Numbered from the stretch's first letter, positions 5,253-19,314 are shown. The stretch: DNA of 20,000 nt from an uncultured virus (IMG/VR IMGVR_UViG_3300028228_000217) (IMGVR_UViG_3300028228_000217), one strand, 5' to 3'. Numbers and translations are program-made. The notes: a model not told the origin generated them from the sequence alone.

Positions 5253-5489
5253 CTATTTTAATATCTCAACTTCACTATTCGTTTCAATGACAACTCTTGC
5301 ACCACAAGGTAGAATAGGTTTCTCACTACCACCATATCTAACTACACTATCACCTAAGATTTTAACTTCGTGACAATATCTATTAGTTTTACCTTGTTTA
5401 ACTGTAATAACAGGTTCATTGGTACCGTGTTTTTTGTTAGCTCTAATGACATGTTGATTGACATGTATGTAAGTTTTCGCTTTCTTCAT
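5253..5489 (-). CDS. Hypothetical phage protein (78 aa)
   Basis: ORF track; ATGA overlap with the upstream gene; IHVNQHVIRAN...LPCGARVVIET. Confidence 0.8.
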   Translation of the reverse strand: MKKAKTYIHVNQHVIRANKKHGTNEPVITVKQGKTNRYCHEVKILGDSVVRYGGSEKPILPCGARVVIETNSEVEILK

Positions 5490-6592
5490 CTTATAATATC
5501 TATCTTACTATCTTTAGTCCAGACCTCTAGGTCATTTCTAAGACGACCATCCTTATTTAGATTGTCAAATCTTTTTATGGCCATTTTTCTCCACCATTCT
5601 ATGATTTCTTTTTCATTATATCTGTCATAGTTTGGTGCCTTAACTATATCTTGTGTCTTACCATTTACAATGTCTATAAAGTTTTCTATACCATAGTTAC
5701 TTGCATAATATCTTTTTTGTTCGGTAAGATTTTTAGCATTTGCAATCGTAAGTTTAAATTTTTCTAAGTCATCACCTTCAAGTGTTTTCTTACATAGACC
5801 AATAATGCCGGTGGTCATTTTAAGTTTACGACTTGAAGCATCCGCTTTTACTAACTGACCTTTACCAATAATATTTTCAACATAGTCTACCATATCTAAG
5901 TATGGTTTACCATGCAACATAGGAATAAAATCTGACATTGTATTGCCTTTGTATCTTAAAAATGGTTTCATACCATCATACATTGAGGCACCTTTTGTTT
6001 TCCCATATAAAGATGTGGTTTCAAACAACACCAAGTTCATGTCATACTTCTTGTTTAACATCTCTCTAACTTGATGTGAACAACATAGACCAGCCAATAA
6101 TTTACCACCAAGATAATTAAAACCAAATGGCTGGCATGGTACAATTACAAAACCCATAATAGCAGTCTTGTTAAATACTTTTAAATCAGGTACATTACCT
6201 AACATATCGTTTCTAGGTTTACAGTTAATAACTGGCGAACCAAATCTCATAAAACCTACAAACTTACCTGTGTTCATTTCTTTTACTGCAAGCTTTAAAG
6301 TCTTACCAGGAATACTTGTCATATTACTATGACTTGATATCATATTAATACAGGTGTCCCATGTGTGATTATCTAGTTCTACAACTTGTAAATCCATGTC
6401 CTTTGGTGACATAGTAAAATCGCAAAACATATCACTATCAAACCCCATACCAGGAAGACTTGATGGTAATGATTCAATCTGAGCCATCTTTTGGTCACGC
6501 ATGTATTGGTCTATTCTTTCAAACTGACCAAAGTAGTCATTGAATATACCAGCACAATGTAGTGCCTGTTCTCTATCTAGGGTTTTCGCCAT
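5486..6592 (-). CDS. DUF4338 (DruA-like) family protein, probable GNAT-like fold
   Basis: Recognised motifs SIPGKTLKLAVKE..TGKFVGF..FGSP, VPCQPFGFNYLGGKLLA, FETTSLYG..SMYDG. Family call is from memory. Confidence 0.75.
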   Translation of the reverse strand: MAKTLDREQALHCAGIFNDYFGQFERIDQYMRDQKMAQIESLPSSLPGMGFDSDMFCDFTMSPKDMDLQVVELDNHTWDTCINMISSHSNMTSIPGKTLKLAVKEMNTGKFVGFMRFGSPVINCKPRNDMLGNVPDLKVFNKTAIMGFVIVPCQPFGFNYLGGKLLAGLCCSHQVREMLNKKYDMNLVLFETTSLYGKTKGASMYDGMKPFLRYKGNTMSDFIPMLHGKPYLDMVDYVENIIGKGQLVKADASSRKLKMTTGIIGLCKKTLEGDDLEKFKLTIANAKNLTEQKRYYASNYGIENFIDIVNGKTQDIVKAPNYDRYNEKEIIEWWRKMAIKRFDNLNKDGRLRNDLEVWTKDSKIDIIR

Positions 6593-10709: not shown

Positions 10710-12095
10710 CTAATCTAAACTATATTTAGTTGTTACTACATATTTTCTTTGTGGGTTTACCATCACATTTAAACGATTCATAAACTCACGGTCAAGTAAG
10801 ATAGGTGTTCTATCTTCTCTATCATCAATGGTAAATTCTACATCTTTGTAGTAACCACCGGCGAATTCTACATCTAGTTTTACGACATATCGGTCTTCAT
10901 CATAATCTCTTAAACCACCAACTGATATTTTTTCTTTACGAATCACATCACTTGTTAATGTTTTACCTAGTAGTGACCAAGTAATAGTTTTGCCATTTGG
11001 TGACATTTTATCTGCATGAATAACTGGCATGCCTGAGTTACCTGTATCAAACTTTGATACAATTTCACCGAAAGGTTTAACGGTTAAGATTTCTTTATAA
11101 CCACACTCTGTTGGTACTGTATATCTATTTTCTTTCTTAGCAAAGTGTTGTATAACTTCCTTTGCAATGTTCATTTTAGAAGCTTCTTCAATACCCTCTG
11201 TACCTGGACTTGAATTTACTTCTAAGAAATAACATGGTTTATTTTCTCTGTCTTTACTTGGTATAAAGTCAACAGCAGTCCAATAACCACCAACTGCCTT
11301 AGCAGCCTTTAAACATTCTTTTATCTCTAAATCTGTTAGTTTATAATCTTTTGGTACTGAACCTTGTGATACATTTGACCTAAAATCTCCTTCAATAACA
11401 GGTCTCATCATAGAGGCTAATATTTTACCACCTAGTACATGCACTCTAACATCATACTCTGTTTTAATATACTCTTGCACCAATAGGTCAGCGTCTTCGT
11501 CTTGTTTATTAATAAGTTGTACAATTGAGTGTAAACTTTTAGGACTTTCAACAAACAATACACCAACACCTTTACTACCTCTAAGTGTTTTCATAATTAA
11601 AGGAAACTTAATACCAGCTTCTTCAACCATATCAACTGAGTTTTCGGGGTCATTGATTAACTTGGTCATTGGTTGTCTTAAACCATAATCTGCAAGTCTT
11701 AAAGAGGTTCTGTATTTGTCGGCACACATATTGATAGTAGTTCTTGGATTTACTAATGTTGCATTAGCCTTTTCAAGCATAGACACTAAGTCCATCCAAC
11801 TATCTTTTCTGACCACACTACCACGAATGATAGCAACTGTCATTGCACCTACTTCAAAACCTTTCTTATCGTCTTTGTTATGAAACTTACGGATACCATC
11901 TTCATAGGTTGTATAACCACCAGTTAACTTAAACAGATAGAATGGATAATTTAACTTCTTACATTCCTCTTGTAGTCTATCGGCAGTATGAAATTCTTTT
12001 GCACCCTCTGGCTCATCTGTAATAATGAGCAGACGCAAAAACTTTTTATTGTCTGTAGCTTCTTCTAAGTAATTTTTAAACGGTTGTACTTGCAT
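10710..12095 (-). CDS. rimK: RimK-family ATP-grasp ligase fused to a C-terminal retropepsin-like (RimB-like) protease domain
   Basis: CADKYRT, FPLIMKTLRGSKGVGV, LVQEYI, DVRVHV, FRSNVSQG, AVDFI, LEVNSSPG; then CGYKE...SKFDTGNSG...DRYVVKL...EFTIDDR...PILLDREFM. Confidence 0.88.
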   Translation of the reverse strand: MQVQPFKNYLEEATDNKKFLRLLIITDEPEGAKEFHTADRLQEECKKLNYPFYLFKLTGGYTTYEDGIRKFHNKDDKKGFEVGAMTVAIIRGSVVRKDSWMDLVSMLEKANATLVNPRTTINMCADKYRTSLRLADYGLRQPMTKLINDPENSVDMVEEAGIKFPLIMKTLRGSKGVGVLFVESPKSLHSIVQLINKQDEDADLLVQEYIKTEYDVRVHVLGGKILASMMRPVIEGDFRSNVSQGSVPKDYKLTDLEIKECLKAAKAVGGYWTAVDFIPSKDRENKPCYFLEVNSSPGTEGIEEASKMNIAKEVIQHFAKKENRYTVPTECGYKEILTVKPFGEIVSKFDTGNSGMPVIHADKMSPNGKTITWSLLGKTLTSDVIRKEKISVGGLRDYDEDRYVVKLDVEFAGGYYKDVEFTIDDREDRTPILLDREFMNRLNVMVNPQRKYVVTTKYSLD

Positions 12096-12914: not shown

Positions 12915-13868
12915 CTATTTAAATTTACAGTTAGCCATAATCTCCGTCAAACACGCAACCATATTAATCTCTTGGTCTGCCACGAAAGCAGACTTGTACT
13001 GATAACCAGCAATGATTAATATTGATTGTGGAATAGAAGAAGATTCTAAAGACTTATACATTAACTCGTAAACACTAGTAAACAATGATGACGGTTCTTT
13101 GTCAAGATTATTAATAACCCATTTACGCATGTCATTAAATCTTTTTTCTTTTAAGATTTTGACCAGTTCTTTTGTATTTGCCTCAGATAAACTAAACAAA
13201 ATACCACTATCGACTTTACCTCTTACAGAATATCTTTGAAGTTCATTGATAGTCCGTCTAAAGTCTGGATAATATTTCTGAATTAACTCAGCTAATACTT
13301 TGGTATCATATTCAATACCTTCTTCATCAAGGACTTTGCCTAGCCTTTGTAATAACGCCTGTGCTGTCTTTACTCTTTGACCATTTTTAATGGCAAAGTC
13401 TATAACGGTACATCTACTATGCAAAGCAGGTAAAATCTTATTCTTGTAATTACAAGTAAAGATAAATCTACAGTTTTTGTAAAATGTTTCAATGAAGTTT
13501 CTTAAAGCAGGTTGTACGGACTCGGCATTCATATAGTCTGCCTCGTCAATAATCACAACTTTATGATTTGAATGTTCAGTTAATGATACAGTAGAAGCAA
13601 AGTTCTTAATCTTGTTTCTTAATGTATCAATCTGACGGCCTTCATCTGAACCGTTTATGATGATGTAATCTGCACCAAGTTCCTCACACAATGCACGAGC
13701 AACAGTAGTCTTACCAGTACCAGCAGTACCAGCTAATAACAGATTAGGTATTTCTTTTTGTTTTAAAAATTGAGTAAATGTAGTTTTTAACTCTTCCGTT
13801 AAAATACAATCCTCAATACGCTTTGGCCTGTAAGCTTCCACCCAAAGGAAGTCTTTTGACTTTTCCAT
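12915..13868 (-). CDS. 44: Clamp loader large subunit (T4 gp44)
   Basis: LWVEAYRP, GTAGTGKT, IIDEAD, SRC motif, YPDFRR. Confidence 0.97.
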   Translation of the reverse strand: MEKSKDFLWVEAYRPKRIEDCILTEELKTTFTQFLKQKEIPNLLLAGTAGTGKTTVARALCEELGADYIIINGSDEGRQIDTLRNKIKNFASTVSLTEHSNHKVVIIDEADYMNAESVQPALRNFIETFYKNCRFIFTCNYKNKILPALHSRCTVIDFAIKNGQRVKTAQALLQRLGKVLDEEGIEYDTKVLAELIQKYYPDFRRTINELQRYSVRGKVDSGILFSLSEANTKELVKILKEKRFNDMRKWVINNLDKEPSSLFTSVYELMYKSLESSSIPQSILIIAGYQYKSAFVADQEINMVACLTEIMANCKFK

Positions 13869-14475
13869 TCTTCACCTCTTTCATTATTATATAATTTTTA
13901 ACACCAGTTTTTCTACTTGCCTCACTAATAGATGCATAGTTTTTACCTTTATATTTAATAGGAACAGCATTTGATGGAGTTTTCCCATACATACCATTCT
14001 TTTTACCTCGGACTTTATCGGAGATTGATTTGATTTCTGCTTCAGTATAATTGTTCCATCTTTCTTTAGTTAATTTAGAAAGAGTGGATTTTTGTTCTTC
14101 ACTTTGTTTCTTACCCAACATTCCGTATGTAGCATATGATTCTCTAGTTTTAGTTTTATGATATTTTTTCATACTTTTTATAAAATTAATACTATTACTT
14201 GTATCTCCACCATCATTACCATTAGTCATATTATAATGAGGTTTTAGTTTAGAAATAGTATCAACTTCTAACAATTTAGATTTACCTTCTTTTATTAATT
14301 CAACATAAAAATTATCTTTTCCATTTTTTCTCATAGCTCTGTATAGATGTGTTTTCATATTTAAATTAAATGCATTATATAAATGTCTAGCAAATCTTTC
14401 TTCTAAAGATTTGGAGGTATATCCTATATAAAATTTTTTATTTACTTTATTTGTAATCTTGTATATTTTTATCAT
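13813..14475 (-). mobile_element. Free-standing GIY-YIG (Seg-like) homing endonuclease with NUMOD-type DNA-binding tail
   Basis: MIKIYKITNKVNKKFYIGYT...ERFARH...E...HYN; GMLGKKQSEEQK and GKKNGMYGK (NUMOD3-like); YASISEASRKTG (NUMOD1/HTH-like). Likely start is ATG 14475, not 14562. Very AT-rich; overlaps the gene 44 start by 56 nt. Confidence 0.9.
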
Positions 14476-14480
14476 ACAAG

Positions 14481-14488
14481 TATTTATA
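14481..14488 (-). promoter_or_regulatory. T4-type late promoter of the homing endonuclease
   Basis: TATAAATA separated from the ATG at 14475 by 5 nt. Confidence 0.75.
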
Positions 14489-14512
14489 AGACAGTAATTC
14501 TCTAAAAACCCA

Positions 14513-14860
14513 TTATTTATTTTCAATTGTAAACTTGTCAACGATTTCAGCATCAACATCATAACCGCCTTTATTCATTGTCCAACAATCTTCTTCACGG
14601 TCATAATCGTGCTCTGATACAAATTCTTGGACTTTATCAGCCAACTCTTTATCTTCTTGTGAAGATTTGTGATAATCGTTGCAATCAAAGTAAAGACCTT
14701 TTTCAAAGGTAGGTAAATCACCAAACTCCTTTATAATATCAGAAACAGCAATTTGTCTGTTAAGATAGTGTGTTGTTTGATGATATTCTCTGGTTTCTAC
14801 TTTGATATAGTCGTCTGAATTGTATTCGGTACCATCTTCTAGCTTATATGTATCGGACAT
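14513..14860 (-). CDS. Acidic hypothetical protein (115 aa)
   Basis: Likely start MSDTYKLEDG at 14860, 1 nt after the gp45 stop; the upstream part of the ORF-track call overlaps gp45. Confidence 0.75.
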   Translation of the reverse strand: MSDTYKLEDGTEYNSDDYIKVETREYHQTTHYLNRQIAVSDIIKEFGDLPTFEKGLYFDCNDYHKSSQEDKELADKVQEFVSEHDYDREEDCWTMNKGGYDVDAEIVDKFTIENK

Positions 14861-14861
14861 A

Positions 14862-15527
14862 TTAAAACTCACTATCAGGTTCGATTGCAATCCAATATTG
14901 AATTGGTTTGTTTCGATTGATAAAGTGTGAGATTTTTTGTGCTGAAATAGCCACATCATAATCATCTCTAATCATTTTAAAGTTCTCAGTTTTAAAATAA
15001 GCCGTAAAGGTCTTATCTGTTTCTCCGATAACAAATGAATAGTCATTTGACGCTGGCGTTTTCTTATCAGTTGCAACTAAACTAATCTCTTTACCATTAC
15101 CTTTTACTGCAATGTCTGGTAGATTAAGTGTTGTTACACCTTTCATTAATTTTTCAAAGACATCTTTCTTCAAAGAAAATGTTACATACTTATCAGGCAT
15201 GGTAATCATTTTAGACGGCGAAACTACCACCGACTTGTCTGCAAAATAATATTTGATTGATTGTTTACTATTACTATCTTTAATAGTTAGGTTTTGACCA
15301 CCATTAAATGCAAGGTCTGACTTATCAAATAAGTCAACAGCCCTTAAAAATTCTGGTAAATCGTAGATAGCAAACTCTTGTTCAAACTTTTCTGATACAT
15401 CAGCTTCAGCTAATATATTTTTTAAAGTTGAAATGGTTTGTAGTTGGTTGCCTGGCTTAACCAAAATATTCTGGTTAATATCTGAAAAGTTTTTCAGAAT
15501 AGCAATTGTATCACTAGTTATGTTCAT
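14862..15527 (-). CDS. 45: Sliding clamp (T4 gp45)
   Basis: TIAILKNFSDINQNILVKPG...FAIYDLPEFL...YWIAIEPDS; 221 aa; upstream of genes 44/62. Confidence 0.95.
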   Translation of the reverse strand: MNITSDTIAILKNFSDINQNILVKPGNQLQTISTLKNILAEADVSEKFEQEFAIYDLPEFLRAVDLFDKSDLAFNGGQNLTIKDSNSKQSIKYYFADKSVVVSPSKMITMPDKYVTFSLKKDVFEKLMKGVTTLNLPDIAVKGNGKEISLVATDKKTPASNDYSFVIGETDKTFTAYFKTENFKMIRDDYDVAISAQKISHFINRNKPIQYWIAIEPDSEF

Positions 15528-15553
15528 TATATAATCTCCGTTTCATAATTAAT

Positions 15554-15627
15554 TGGAGCGGAGTGATTGTACTGCCCAATCTTCTCTTGGTTGGAAACCA
15601 AGTGTGTTACTTTTATACTAACTCCGC
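15554..15627 (-). tRNA. tRNA-Gly(UCC) with non-canonical D and T loops, CCA encoded
   Basis: GCGGAGT TA GTAT AAAAGTA ACAC A CTTGG TTTCCAA CCAAG AGAA GATTG GGCAGTA CAATC ACTCCGC T CCA: perfect 7-bp acceptor, 5-bp anticodon and 5-bp T stems; U73. Confidence 0.92.
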
Positions 15628-15644
15628 ATTTGTTCATATTATAC

Positions 15645-15675
15645 ATTATACTCTAAAGGCGTCCTATTGTCAAGC
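15645..15675 (-). promoter_or_regulatory. Consensus sigma70 promoter driving tRNA-Gly and gene 45 onward
   Basis: GC-TTGACA-17 nt-TATAAT, a perfect consensus. Confidence 0.9.
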
Positions 15676-15685
15676 GTAGGACGCC
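15655..15685 (-). terminator. Hairpin downstream of hsp20, probable terminator
   Basis: GGCGTCCTA-10 nt loop-TAGGACGCC followed by TTTA; U-tract is short. Confidence 0.55.
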
Positions 15686-15698
15686 AATAGATTAAATG

Positions 15699-16151
15699 TT
15701 ATTTAATGTTGATTGTTCTAGCCTTTCTATGGTCTGGAACAATTTTCTCTAAAGAAACTGTTAAAAGGCCGTCTTTAAGTTCAGCACCTTTAACCTCAAC
15801 ATCTTCAGCAATAGTAAATGATTTCATAAAGTTTCTTTTAGCAATGCCTTTGTGTAATACTCCGTCATTTTCTTCTACTTCTTTTTCGTCTTTACTTTTT
15901 ACTGATTCGATTTTTAGGATATTATCCTCATAACTGATTGATACATCTTTCTTATTGTATCCAGCTAATGCCACTTGAATATCATATGTTAAAGAACCTG
16001 TCTTTACGATATTGTATGGTGGATAATTGTTAGCCGTCATGTGTGGTAGATGGTCAACCATATGGTCGAAATGGTCGAACATGTCGTCAAACCCCACGGT
16101 AAACGGCCTTAGTCCAGTAAAAATTGATTGAATTGCTTTGTGATTTGTCAT
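15699..16151 (-). CDS. hsp20: Small heat shock protein (Hsp20, IbpA-like)
   Basis: RPFTVGFD, NYPPYNIVK, ALAGY, LHKGIAKRNF..SFTIA, GAELKDGLLTVSLEKIVP, INIK tail. Confidence 0.96.
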   Translation of the reverse strand: MTNHKAIQSIFTGLRPFTVGFDDMFDHFDHMVDHLPHMTANNYPPYNIVKTGSLTYDIQVALAGYNKKDVSISYEDNILKIESVKSKDEKEVEENDGVLHKGIAKRNFMKSFTIAEDVEVKGAELKDGLLTVSLEKIVPDHRKARTINIK

Positions 16152-16205
16152 TTTAATCTCCTTTGTTAAGCAAGTTAATGTTTGATACCTCTTATGAGCG
16201 TATCA
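16152..16205 (-). promoter_or_regulatory. ROSE-like RNA thermometer in the hsp20 leader
   Basis: 5' hairpin TGATACGCTC-ATAA-GAGGTATCA, then CTTGCTT-AACA-AAGGAG: U(U/C)GCU motif pairing with the SD with a bulged G. Confidence 0.65.
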
Positions 16206-16209
16206 TAGT

Positions 16210-16241
16210 TATTTATATGGGGATTAAAGTTCATATTTCAA
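16210..16241 (-). promoter_or_regulatory. Sigma32 (RpoH)-type promoter overlapping a T4 late promoter
   Basis: TTGAAA-13 nt-CCCCATAT, running directly into TATAAATA (16210-16217). Confidence 0.75.
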
Positions 16242-16261
16242 CCCCCATACAAAATTTTTAA

Positions 16262-17398
16262 TTAAATATTCTCTAGTTTATCCTCCGGGATAGCTTTGAA
16301 AATATCTTTTCGGCTAATTAGAACCTGTTTTCTATTCAGATTCTTCTTACTCCATCTATTGATATTTTTAATCAGTTCATAAACAGGTTTCATAACATCT
16401 TTATTTTTACCTGAATTAGGAAATATATCTGATTGTTCAAATTGACCTGACCACTCCATAAACCATCCTTCAAAGACTTCTTTATTAATTTTATTATCAA
16501 AATAGTGTCTGATAATTGTTAACACAGATAAAGCTCCTGTTAAGATTTCACTATCTGTTTGATATGCCTTTCTAAGCAAATTAACATTATCTTTTACTAT
16601 TTCATAATCAAACTCTTTGATAATAGCCATTAAAGATGATGGAGAAGATATTTTTTTCAAAACTTTACCGTTTTGTTTCACTTGATTTTTAATATTAAAT
16701 CCCATGTCAACTAAAACTCTCATTGTATTTTCATATTGAGGTTCGCCAGCTTGAGCACCTGAAACTAATCTATCTTCAGCACCTTGGTTTGTTCTTCTAT
16801 CACTATCTGTGTGATGAATAATAGCACCAAACTTTCTGATTTCATCTAAAGATGTTTCTTTACCTAAACAAACAACTCTAGCAAATACAGGTGCACCAAG
16901 TCCACTTACAATAATAGATTTTGCTGTACAATGATTACCAATCACGGTTACAAATTTATATGTTCCGTCTTTAGCATAATATACAACTACGGTAATATTC
17001 ATAGCTTGCCAAAATAAACCTTCTCTTAAATCTAAATGTGTAGATATATTTGTAAAATTGATATTGTCTCCTCTATTGTGAATGATATTGGTGTATATCA
17101 TATCATTAGGAATCCAAGCATAAGTATCAAAACTACGACCTTTTCTGATTTTCTGGTCAATTGTTTGAAAATCAACACCGTCAGGTTTAATACCTATTTC
17201 TTTCCATCCTCTATCAGATTTTAATTCTGATGGTGTGAATGGATATTTTTTTCTTGTGTTGAAATGTTTATCAACTTGTCCACTAATTGAAAACAAATGT
17301 TTGCTTTCTTCATAGGCATTTAGTGATTTTTTTAAGTCGATATTTTTTACTGCGTCAGGTAACTTGTAGTCACCTTTTCTTAGGTCTGATATATACAT
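16262..17398 (-). CDS. Hypothetical protein, probable divergent ParB/Srx-like (DUF6551-like) domain
   Basis: AWIP..IY.NIIHNR...VVVYYAKDGTYKFVTVIGNHC...HTDSDRRTNQGAEDRLVSGAQAGE parallels YQR...viDGQHR...N..r...drf.a...ag; strong SD AAGGAGG. Confidence 0.55.
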   Translation of the reverse strand: MYISDLRKGDYKLPDAVKNIDLKKSLNAYEESKHLFSISGQVDKHFNTRKKYPFTPSELKSDRGWKEIGIKPDGVDFQTIDQKIRKGRSFDTYAWIPNDMIYTNIIHNRGDNINFTNISTHLDLREGLFWQAMNITVVVYYAKDGTYKFVTVIGNHCTAKSIIVSGLGAPVFARVVCLGKETSLDEIRKFGAIIHHTDSDRRTNQGAEDRLVSGAQAGEPQYENTMRVLVDMGFNIKNQVKQNGKVLKKISSPSSLMAIIKEFDYEIVKDNVNLLRKAYQTDSEILTGALSVLTIIRHYFDNKINKEVFEGWFMEWSGQFEQSDIFPNSGKNKDVMKPVYELIKNINRWSKKNLNRKQVLISRKDIFKAIPEDKLENI

Positions 17399-17477
17399 AT
17401 CGTTTAGCCCTCCTTGGACTGTTTGGTTGCTTACTTAAAAAATTCTACTAGAATTTAATAAACAACCGGTTCATTGT

Positions 17478-17485
17478 TATTTATA
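17478..17485 (-). promoter_or_regulatory. T4-type late promoter upstream of the ParB-like gene
   Basis: Exact TATAAATA, intergenic, about 80 nt before ATG 17398. Confidence 0.65.
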
Positions 17486-17772
17486 CATTAACATTCACTA
17501 GGCTAAGGATCCCTACCAGTTCCCTAGTGAATATGTTAATGATTTAGGTTCACTCTCGCTCTCCTAAATTTTATTGGGCTGAGGCAGGTCAACAACCTCA
17601 TTATACTAACTTATCTAACTAAGCCTATGCATTATGCCTACGAAGACCAATGAGCCCGAATTTGGTGGTGGTTTTTGTGTCGTCAGACCACCAACTGCGG
17701 CTTGTAATTTATTGCTATGCAATGGGTCAAGCTACCCTCCACGCCCCAGGTCTTACGATTTGCCTGGTATCA
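17486..17772 (-). ncRNA. Candidate structured non-coding RNA (~290 nt)
   Basis: GC-enriched intergenic region with successive stems (CCAGG/CCTGG, GGGT/ACCC, TGGTGGT/ACCACCA, GGGCT/AGCCC, GAGG/CCTC, ATTTAGG/CCTAAAT, long terminal stem), preceded by late-promoter-like AATAAATA at 17774-17781. Confidence 0.6.
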
Positions 17773-17806
17773 CTATTTATTCATGTTATAAGCACAGGCG
17801 GGAATT

Positions 17807-18009
17807 CTATCTATCTTGTTCCAATTTTTTCTGGTTCTTTTTATAGTTTTTAATACCTTCTTTTTCTTTTCCCTTTTAATTTCAGATGGTTTTTGATAGT
17901 GTTGTCTAGCTCTTAACTCTTTTACTAGACCTTCTTTCATAACCTTCTTCTTTAAAACTCTCATAGCTTTTTCGAGGTTACCACCTCTAACTTCTACAGT
18001 TATACTCAT
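17807..18009 (-). CDS. rpsU: Ribosomal protein bS21 (67 aa after correcting an apparent 1-nt homopolymer deletion)
   Basis: MSITVEVRGGNLEKAMRVLKKKVMKEGLVKELRARQHYQKPSEIKR; adding one A at 17861-17865 gives ...KKKEGIKNYKKNQKKLEQDR* ending at 17807; SD GGAGG. Confidence 0.9.
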
Positions 18010-18038
18010 AAATTTATTACCTCCTCCCTTGATAGTGT

Positions 18039-18067
18039 AAAAAGGTGGAGGGCACTACCCCTCCACC
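18039..18067 (-). terminator. Rho-independent terminator after cobS
   Basis: GGTGGAGGG-GTAGTG-CCCTCCACC-TTTTT; an outer inverted repeat TAGTGTAA/TTACACTA flanks it. Confidence 0.8.
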
Positions 18068-18093
18068 AAGGACTTACACTATGTTTAATAGAT

Positions 18094-19314
18094 TTAGATG
18101 GCATCGCTGTCATCTGACTCACTATCATTGTCGTCCATTTGTGAAGTCATATCCGCTTGTCTAGCTTCTTCGCTTATCTGCTCAGCAGTAGCGCCAGCAT
18201 CCACTTTGGTATATAATTCCATAAATGAATTCTTTGTGTCATCATCAAATCTGTTAGTACAAACTTCAATAGCTTTGATTTTTTGACCAAAGATACTGTA
18301 TGCTTGAGTGATGTGAACCAATCTTCTAGTTGATATAATCTCGTCAACACCACCATCATAGTAGGTTTTTCTGATTACATCAGCCCATGTTACCAACTTC
18401 TTACAAAAATCTATATCATCTTTGCTTGTAGCCTTTAATGTAGAAACTAAAATCTTTTCTTCTACACTTGGTTTTGGATATTTCTGTTCAAAGGTAATTG
18501 GAAATCTTTCCAAGAAAGCCTCATTAAGAACATTAGTACCAATAAACTTACCGTCATCACTACCTTGACCTTTAGTATTGGCAGTAGCAACACAGTTGAA
18601 ACCATGAGCAGGTTTTACAAATCTGTTTATCTTCTTAACATAGACACCAGAGCCTTCTAAGATAGGTTGTAAACACATAATCTTATTAGACGCAAGGTCA
18701 ATTTCATCAAGTAGAAGCACAGCGCCTCTCTCCATGGCTTCGATTACAGGACCATTCTGCCAAACAGTTTGGCCATCTTTAAGTCTGTAACCACCAAGTA
18801 AATCATCTTCATCTGTTTCAATGGTAATGTTTACTCTAATTAATTCTCTCTTGTTTTCGGCACAAGCTTGGGTAACACCCATAGTCTTACCGTTACCTGA
18901 AAGACCTGTAATAAAAACAGGATAAAACATCTTGCTTTTGATAATGCTCTTAACATCTGGATAATTACCAAATGAAACGAACACAGGATCCTTTTCAGGA
19001 ACAATGTTGCCAGTTAATGATGAAACTACATACGCAGCTTCAGAAACAGTTTCAGTTTCAGGTGCTTTAGTAGTCAAAACTTTTTCAGTTTCACCTTTTG
19101 TTTCAGCCTTAATAGACGGAGTATAATCTCCCTCAGTAGGCAATTTGAACAATGATTTACCAATTTTGAAATCATTATTTTTAATTAGCCATTGTGGTGC
19201 ATACTTGCAACCAAAATTGGCATTAGCTTCTTTTAATTGAACTGTAGTCAATTCGTTTGAACCAAACTTTTTAATAGCAAAGTCAACGAACTCTTGTTGT
19301 TTAGTGTTTAGCAT
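18094..19314 (-). CDS. cobS: CobS-like / MoxR-family AAA+ ATPase (406 aa)
   Basis: GLSGNGKT, ETDEDDLLGG, LLLDEID, TANTKGQG, NEAFLERF, ISTRRL. Start at MLNTKQQ (19314) with SD AAGGA; the longer ORF-track start would span the promoter. Confidence 0.92.
   Translation of the reverse strand: MLNTKQQEFVDFAIKKFGSNELTTVQLKEANANFGCKYAPQWLIKNNDFKIGKSLFKLPTEGDYTPSIKAETKGETEKVLTTKAPETETVSEAAYVVSSLTGNIVPEKDPVFVSFGNYPDVKSIIKSKMFYPVFITGLSGNGKTMGVTQACAENKRELIRVNITIETDEDDLLGGYRLKDGQTVWQNGPVIEAMERGAVLLLDEIDLASNKIMCLQPILEGSGVYVKKINRFVKPAHGFNCVATANTKGQGSDDGKFIGTNVLNEAFLERFPITFEQKYPKPSVEEKILVSTLKATSKDDIDFCKKLVTWADVIRKTYYDGGVDEIISTRRLVHITQAYSIFGQKIKAIEVCTNRFDDDTKNSFMELYTKVDAGATAEQISEEARQADMTSQMDDNDSESDDSDAI

Follow-up and report, generated by a model that had tools for sequence, protein, structure and literature searches.

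Can a transfer RNA (tRNA) that has given up most of the canonical elbow between its D and T loops, the two loops whose contacts normally hold the molecule in its L shape, still serve in translation? The question is raised by a glycine tRNA gene on the minus strand of a 20,000-nt stretch of DNA (hereafter the window, meaning this whole length) from the uncultured virus IMGVR_UViG_3300028228_000217. The initial annotation had taken the gene for a chargeable tRNA-Gly set apart as a dedicated glycyl donor for a non-ribosomal reaction. It proved to be an unannotated T4-type tRNA-Gly that is widespread in two clades of pelagimyophages and carries a co-adapted alternative elbow. The window itself can be assigned to a T4-like pelagimyophage of SAR11. 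In a nucleotide search of phage records, positions 14800-16400 were 81.9% identical to Pelagibacter phage Mosig EXVC030M over 65% of their length, and the genes follow a T4-type replication-module order (DNA polymerase, RegA, clamp loader, clamp, Hsp20, S21 and CobS-like ATPase, all on the minus strand).

The tRNA extends from G1 at 15627 to the discriminator U73 at 15557 and is followed by an encoded CCA at 15556-15554. Positions 15627..15557 align with positions 1-71 of the Rfam tRNA model RF00005 at 42.6 bits (E = 3.5e-6), well above the gathering score of 29, and this is the sole Rfam match in the window. ARAGORN reported no tRNA gene in the window, which is a false negative. A fast genome search with RF00005 also did not report the tRNA in Mosig or in G002, a relative represented by a 99%-complete contig; our own covariance model (R1) finds it in both, and in the sequence of phage HTVC008M as well.

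Three stems are perfectly paired, as the initial annotation had described: the acceptor stem (GCGGAGU/ACUCCGC, 7/7), the anticodon stem (CUUGG/CCAAG, 5/5) and the T stem (GAUUG/CAAUC, 5/5, including A50-U64, U51-A63 and U52-A62). The D stem carries an A12.C23 mismatch in the Rfam alignment. The minimum free energy (MFE) fold recovers the acceptor, anticodon and T arms with a z-score of -3.9, and one of 200 shuffled sequences was as stable. The anticodon loop is UUUCCAA with anticodon UCC, the variable loop is AGAA, and positions 15 and 48 are both A, again as first annotated. The D loop reads AAAAGUA and the T loop GGCAGUA, numbered G54 G55 C56 A57 G58 U59 A60. What is left of the canonical elbow (G18, G19, T54, psi55, C56 and A58) is C56 and a single G aligned to G19. 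The initial annotation, which had described loops without G18G19 and without T54-psi55-C56, was therefore right about the sequences and about the replacement of G18, T54 and psi55, but not about C56, which is still there, or about G19, since the one G in the D loop stands opposite G19 when the T4 tRNA is aligned with it.

We compared the window tRNA with 68 relatives and the T4 tRNA in an alignment of 70 distinct sequences. Standard pairs fill 95.8% of 1466 cells, double (compensatory) changes occur at 14 of the 21 pairs, and the covariation score is 0.611 as against 0.162 for shuffled alignments (none of 500 reached 0.611) and at most 0.095 with slid partners. The RNA is thus a bacterial-type cloverleaf with stems of 7, 4, 5 and 5 bp that are backed by covariation. 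The glycyl-tRNA synthetase (GlyRS) identity elements that had been called intact in the window, G1-C72, C2-G71, G3-C70, U73, C35 and C36, are unchanged in 70/70 sequences. All 70 also have G10-C25 or G10.U25, and G45 is present in the window. The bacterial glycine set, as given in the accessible text of PMC9976931 (U73, G1-C72, C2-G71, C35, C36 and the consensus G10-Y25:G45), is accordingly found complete.

To survey its distribution we anchored the search on the clamp protein and not on the RNA. Among 80 viral contigs with 77-100% clamp identity, 76 carry the tRNA. Three of the four misses have less than 90 nt of upstream sequence; the fourth (L069) has 963 nt and gave no match. All 76 loci have the D loop AAAAGUA, and their T loops are GGCAGUA (62) or AGCGUUA (14). 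Of the 74 loci in which 125 nt or more of upstream sequence is available, 65 have the tRNA immediately ahead of the clamp gene. In one group (L072-L080) it is located about 600-700 nt further upstream, with another, unannotated open reading frame (ORF) in between. A second anchor, the clamp of G002, is 48% identical to the window clamp and revealed the tRNA in 19 of 20 loci of the HTVC008M/G002 clade (at least 84% clamp identity and at least 2.7 kb upstream). The gene downstream of the tRNA accordingly differs by clade, being the clamp gene in most, S21 in HTVC008M/G002 and the unannotated ORF in L072-L080.

Two of the carriers are isolates with published genomes. The Mosig homologue is annotated as a 31-aa hypothetical protein, Mosig_000011 (L001 3692-3765), and is the only match over the tRNA in megablast and blastn searches of phage records. 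Mosig was published with three tRNAs (accessible text of PMC7892664), which are canonical Pro, Arg and Leu genes near 91.6 kb. The type pelagimyophage HTVC008M (NC_020484), listed with no tRNAs in Table 1 of PMC7029224, has the gene at 91140-91213 (L405 2641-2714), in an unannotated gap between CobS and S21 and 14 nt before the S21 ATG. This homologue has the D loop AGAAGUA, the T loop AGCGUUA and the anticodon ACC; it is too diverged for blastn and was recovered by the covariance model only. A scan of genome contigs with the phage S21 protein yielded 22 loci, none of which came from SAR11. A pattern scan within a small-genome phylum of 261 genomes gave one match, which was not tRNA-like, and is uninformative on SAR11.

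The closest relative of the window tRNA is the tRNA-Gly of phage T4 (AF158101 72291-72364). A Mosig-type member is identical to it in the 7-bp acceptor stem, U8-C9, the D stem (GUAU/UUAC), U73 and the encoded CCA, and it shares the 7-nt D loop, the 4-nt variable loop and the anticodon UCC. Judged from these shared acceptor-arm and D-arm features, the window tRNA is an orthologue of T4-type tRNA-Gly(UCC). Where T4 has the D loop AAUGGUA and the T loop UUCGAUU, the window type has AAAAGUA and GGCAGUA. The alignment suggests that the G19-C56 pair has most likely been kept and that G18, T54, psi55 and A58 have been replaced, with G18.psi55 probably becoming A.G55 and T54.A58 becoming G.G. Sister clades have A54/U58 (AGCGUUA) or U54/U58 (UGCGUUA) instead. 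The 70 + 19 aligned sequences show no variation at G55, C56, U59, A60 or the D-loop G.

We examined the relation between the two loops by scanning IMG/VR, with the D stem fixed as GUAU, for all four combinations of odd and canonical loops. Odd D with odd T loops occurred in at least 120 contigs, and canonical D with canonical T loops in at least 121, which are mostly Gly(UCC) and Thr(UGU). The mixed types were absent among tRNA-like sequences: an odd D loop with a canonical T loop gave 8 matches and a canonical D loop with an odd T loop gave 10, none of them tRNA-like. The odd loops are strictly coupled and look like a co-adapted set, in an elbow that appears remodelled and not lost.

The same D and T loops also occur with other anticodons. 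Eight distinct tRNAs carry GUC (Asp), UGU (Thr, two), GGU (Thr), GAU (Ile) or UUG (Gln, three), and their acceptor and discriminator features, judged by eye, fit Asp, Thr, Ile and Gln identities. For three of the eight the context places them in or beside canonical tRNA arrays of other phages: the Asp tRNA is 5 nt from a canonical tRNA-Asn, the Ile tRNA (G003) is in a tRNA-rich region of a 137.8-kb phage with 14 Rfam tRNA matches, and the Thr tRNA of G004 adjoins other tRNA matches. No homologue of the window clamp was detectable in these three array phages. On the evidence of these genes, the odd elbow is not specific to glycine and is usable by ordinary tRNAs, and other marine phages appear to use it for other amino acids. 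One of the eight (L102) has A53-U61 in its T stem.

The perfect sigma-70 promoter that had been noted upstream of the tRNA (TTGACA-17-TATAAT) stands alone among 22 promoter-like sites in 14800-18200 (3.4 kb). Its -10 hexamer ends 17 nt from G1 in the window. Of 72 related loci, 67 have a promoter of the form TTGAC[A/T]-17-TAnnnT ahead of the tRNA, and the gap between the -10 hexamer and G1 is 7-8 nt in 50 of these 67 and 16-17 nt in the other 17. Given the gap of 7-8 nt in most relatives, transcription probably starts at or next to G1. The -35 hexamer of the window sits within the loop of a hairpin that lies downstream of the preceding Hsp20 gene. This hairpin failed the T-tail rule of a terminator scan and recurs in the upstream sequences of relatives; it is likely to be the terminator of Hsp20. 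We found no terminator in the 26 nt between the CCA and the clamp ATG, and the tRNA and the clamp mRNA would therefore form one transcription unit. The spacer between tRNA and ORF measures 23-39 nt in the 53 pattern-bearing loci in which it was determined by script. Among 24 metatranscriptome runs, all taken as contigs, contigs span the tRNA and the clamp start in four runs of four studies (e.g. 14862-15790), although contigs cannot prove transcription, ends or strand.

With about even confidence, we favor the reading that this RNA most likely still translates, as a phage tRNA-Gly with a replaced and co-adapted elbow. The sigma-70 RNA polymerase of the host would transcribe it early, using the strong promoter that belongs to the gene itself; the tRNA would head a transcript that runs on into the clamp gene (or into S21 or another ORF in relatives), and would be released by cleavage in the AU-rich spacer 3' of the encoded CCA. 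The host GlyRS would charge it with glycine; all known bacterial glycine determinants are invariant. UCC forms would then decode GGA and GGG, and the frequent ACC forms would decode GGU, the dominant Gly codon of these phages. The elbow might have been rewritten to gain independence from host T54, psi55 and Gm18 modification or, alternatively, to evade some factor by which the canonical form is recognized.

Anticodon loops bear on this reading in both directions. Among 69 sequences the loop is UUUCCAA in 39, UUACCAA in 19 and of other types in 11, and position 34 is U in 43, A in 23, C in 3 and G in none. The ACC anticodon pairs perfectly with the main Gly codon, GGT, which makes up 278 (75%) of the Gly codons of the window, followed by GGA (42), GGC (41) and GGG (8). 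The GGA share of Gly codons is 13.8% at U34 loci and 9.0% at A34 loci, a contrast in favor of decoding that is limited by relatedness (kinship is uncorrected) and by unvetted ORFs, and hence a weak hint. Several other observations weigh against a role in translation. GGA, the cognate of the window's own UCC, is a minor codon (11% of window Gly codons), and U32, which is present in most members, should limit UCC to GGA and GGG by a rule that we take in part from PMC7826273. Four members (L117:392-464, L123:385-457(-), L131:392-464 and L186:285-357(-)) have a 6-nt anticodon loop, UCCCAA or UACCAA, between perfect, covarying stems, and a fifth (L129:392-465) has A33 with stems that are likewise perfect and covarying; such variants are hard to reconcile with decoding as the sole function. 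In a third clamp clade (less than 84% identity to G002), none of 23 loci has the tRNA within 3.5 kb, and it is therefore dispensable for some pelagimyophages. Position 55 is G in place of psi55, as in staphylococcal non-proteogenic tRNAs. The strong G51-C63 pair is absent throughout the family alignment, as it is from the window, and the predicted affinity for EF-Tu is low. We calculated this affinity with the additive T-stem model of Schrader and Uhlenbeck (PMC3239215 Table 2), and all values from it are predictions only. The window T stem scores -9.5 kcal/mol and the tRNA-Gly family has a mean of -9.33 kcal/mol (range -10.3 to -8.1; 68 of 69 sequences scorable), compared with -11.0 kcal/mol for T4 tRNA-Gly and a mean of -10.8 kcal/mol (standard deviation 0.68) for bacterial Gly(UCC) (PMC3239215). 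By this measure the family has the weak T stem of staphylococcal non-proteogenic tRNA-Gly, for which -9.5 is predicted and -9.6/-9.7 were measured (PMC3239215).

Canonical-elbow phage tRNAs offer a closer standard for these values, and they score 0.5-1 kcal/mol weaker than bacterial class means. The 41 canonical-elbow phage tRNA-Gly(UCC) of the same D-arm type have a mean of -10.27 +/- 0.75 kcal/mol, and 20 canonical-elbow phage Thr(UGU) a mean of -8.85 kcal/mol relative to a class mean of -9.8. Since phage tRNAs are weak in general, the anomaly of the Gly family shrinks to about 0.9 kcal/mol relative to comparable phage tRNA-Gly, and the model predicts an effect that is real but modest. Six of the eight non-Gly odd-elbow tRNAs are within 0.4 kcal/mol of their class means in the same model, and the three canonical tRNAs of Mosig are within 0.5 kcal/mol of theirs.

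The low predicted affinity would suit a Gly-tRNA that is kept out of translation: charged by GlyRS, binding EF-Tu and the ribosome poorly, and either donating glycine to a tRNA-dependent transferase or drawing off, as decoy or sink, some factor that targets free Gly-tRNA-Gly. Besides the T-stem values and G55, this reading draws on the agreement of Mosig's canonical tRNAs with their class means, by which the T-stem rule seems valid in this system, and on the persistence of the 6-nt-loop and A33 variants with intact stems. The D loop and T-loop positions 59 and 60, which vary in ordinary tRNAs, are invariant here and suggest a specific partner or fold; many ORFs of G002 belong to no Pfam family, which leaves room for a novel partner. 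We nevertheless consider the reading the less likely one, though a live alternative. Pfam searches of 24 window ORFs and 144 of the 184 G002 ORFs (the other 40 lie in the structural block) found no FemAB, L/F-transferase, LPG_synthase_C (MprF-C), ATE or CDPS domain, and the host is a Gram-negative SAR11 bacterium. The lack of interpeptide bridges in this host is established. Thr, Ile, Gln and Asp tRNAs whose predicted EF-Tu values are normal have the same elbow. The closest relative, T4 tRNA-Gly, takes part in translation, and the retention of C56 and the G19 equivalent gives the elbow a remodelled look. Position 34 avoids G and nearly avoids C, which would be pointless for a pure donor. Weak T-stem values are common among phage tRNAs, and two single-copy tRNAs of Ca. 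Pelagibacter ubique, Gln UUG (-7.6) and Thr UGU (-8.2), are weak outliers that must still translate (PMC3239215). Of the dedicated glycyl donor first proposed for this locus, the weak predicted T stem stands, whereas the T4 ancestry, the lack of a transferase among the scanned ORFs and the occurrence of the elbow in four other tRNA classes speak against it. Should it nonetheless be correct, a Gly-tRNA kept from EF-Tu and the ribosome by its weak T stem and rewritten elbow, and expressed from the first minutes of infection, might supply or inhibit some non-ribosomal reaction of the glycine-dependent SAR11 cell, and marine phages might possess a second, 'orthogonal' elbow that host factors do not read; we regard this prospect, too, as doubtful.

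The gene's position allows a different explanation, in which the sequence is a cis-acting 5' tRNA-like module that processes or stabilizes the clamp or S21 mRNA, without any function for the RNA once it is released. In every case the tRNA comes directly behind the strong promoter, an ORF begins 23-39 nt further on and the interval holds no terminator, the 7-8-nt gap in 50 of the 67 promoter-bearing loci would make it the 5' end of the mRNA, and the bridging contigs of four metatranscriptome studies, as contigs alone and with transcription unproven, fit such a transcript. This explanation is improbable, in that a processing signal needs no invariant glycine set, C35/C36, U73 or encoded CCA, the downstream gene varies by clade (clamp, S21 or an unannotated ORF), and the same elbow is present in tRNAs within tRNA arrays. 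Far less credible still is a decaying pseudogene or an assembly error, for which the silence of ARAGORN and the absence of the gene from the published tRNA counts of HTVC008M and Mosig could be cited. The loops are identical or nearly so over at least 120 contigs, the stems are fully compensated, the promoter is conserved and the tRNA is present in two isolate genomes. The homologues do not have canonical GG/TTC loops; they retain the odd ones while their stems covary strongly, and the gene is therefore not a product of decay or error, as the intact stems had suggested from the start. Conservation and covariation led us to reject this candidate. A tRNA that still translates remains the reading we prefer.

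Table 1. Positions of the tRNA, its flanking features in the window and the non-Gly tRNAs with the same elbow
Feature	Position	Strand	Evidence or remark
tRNA-Gly(UCC), 74 nt including encoded CCA (15556-15554)	15627..15554	-	Rfam RF00005; own covariance model R1 at 93 bits; covariation in 70 sequences
Sigma-70-type promoter TTGACA-17-TATAAT	15673..15645	-	12/12 match
Hairpin GGCGUCCUA / UAGGACGCC then UUU	15655..15685	-	Read from sequence; 3' of small heat-shock gene
AU-rich spacer, 26 nt, CCA to clamp ATG	15528..15553	-	GGAG ribosome-binding site 15539-15536
gp45-type sliding clamp gene, first ORF downstream of tRNA	14862..15527	-	Pfam gp45-slide_C 7.6e-11; Mosig annotation
Small heat-shock protein (Hsp20) gene, upstream of promoter and tRNA	15699..16151	-	Pfam HSP20 2.2e-15
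Non-Gly odd-elbow tRNAs	L102:392-465, L119:392-465, L140:385-458(-), L173, L174, L187, L189, L190		Marine phage contigs

Other genes of the window and its relatives were noted in passing. A RimK-type ATP-grasp domain is fused to a Zn-protease-like domain in the ORF at 10710-12095 (-), and a phage ribosomal protein S21 gene is located at 17773-18009 (-); together with the tRNA, these two genes suggest a phage that remodels the translation machinery of its host. Between the S21 gene and a 378-aa ORF there is an ORF-free stretch of about 375 nt (17400-17775, minus strand) with a GC content of 0.435 in surroundings of about 0.30, an MFE z-score of -3.1 and no Rfam match at E<=1, which is possibly a structured non-coding RNA. 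A GIY-YIG homing-endonuclease-like ORF (13813-14562, minus strand) lies between the clamp and clamp loader genes, a place occupied in Mosig by an Fe2OG dioxygenase gene. Within phage replication modules, ORFs at 5486-6592 (-) in the window and at L254:1803-3059 and L254:14595-15725 match the Druantia DruA family weakly to moderately. The pelagimyophage G002 encodes CsgF- and CsgG-like curli secretion components and a CHASE2-adenylate/guanylate cyclase (L257:10525-11826 and L257:15107-16948).

The hosts of pelagimyophages are the most abundant bacteria in the sea, and standard finders (ARAGORN here, tRNAscan-SE in published papers) miss a tRNA gene that is present in the majority of phages in two pelagimyophage clades. 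With this gene, nature supplies a hyper-conserved substitute for the G18/G19-T54/psi55/C56 elbow, which is otherwise nearly universal. The substitute has been reused by at least five amino-acid identities and thereby offers a ready test of the purposes that elbow nucleotides serve, be it modification, RNase P, EF-Tu, the ribosome or defence nucleases. The weak predicted EF-Tu T stem and the odd anticodon loops make the question of translating versus non-translating function testable with HTVC008M or Mosig and Ca. P. ubique HTCC1062. In the searchable literature, which comprised openly available main texts, we found no account of the tRNA or its elbow, and the T-loop review PMC7912444 contains no mention of G54, G55, A18 or phage.

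Among known systems, the T4 tRNA-Gly is closest, and it differs from the window tRNA beyond the two loops. Its T stem has G49.U65, U50-A64 and G51-C63 where the window has G-C, A-U and U-A (-11.0 versus -9.5 in the T-stem model), its position 32 is C and not U, and its gene belongs to a tRNA cluster, whereas the window gene stands at the head of a replication operon. The arrangement in the phage recalls the E. coli thrU-tyrU-glyT-thrT-tufB operon, in which tRNA genes including tRNA-Gly(UCC) lie 5' of a protein gene of the replication or translation apparatus. The phage unit differs from that operon in having a single tRNA, whose 5' end is probably the transcription start in most relatives.

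The staphylococcal tRNAs NP1-3, which are glycine donors for FmhB, FemA and FemB, resemble the phage tRNA in their Gly identity, UCC anticodon and weak EF-Tu T stem (PMC3239215 Table 4 and the accessible text of PMC7826273). In that text psi55 is replaced by G (UGC/UGU for UUC) and the D-loop GG is disturbed (U19), and G55 is also found in the window tRNA. The likeness drawn in the initial annotation thus extends to G55 and to an equal T-stem value of -9.5, but not to the kind of loss, for the phage tRNA has kept C56 and an equivalent of G19. As described there, the staphylococcal tRNAs keep U54, whereas position 54 of the phage family is G, A or U, and the non-proteogenic lineage is confined to staphylococci, whereas the window tRNA is of T4 type and is carried by SAR11 myophages. 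The staphylococcal system also uses a Fem-family enzyme, of which none was found among the scanned ORFs of the window and G002. Mitochondrial tRNAs provide a different parallel, having lost the G18/G19-psi55/C56 consensus and kept a functional L shape (accessible text of PMC2777451). Their loops vary in both size and sequence, in contrast to those of the phage tRNAs, which are hyper-conserved and strictly coupled in an otherwise bacterial-type tRNA.

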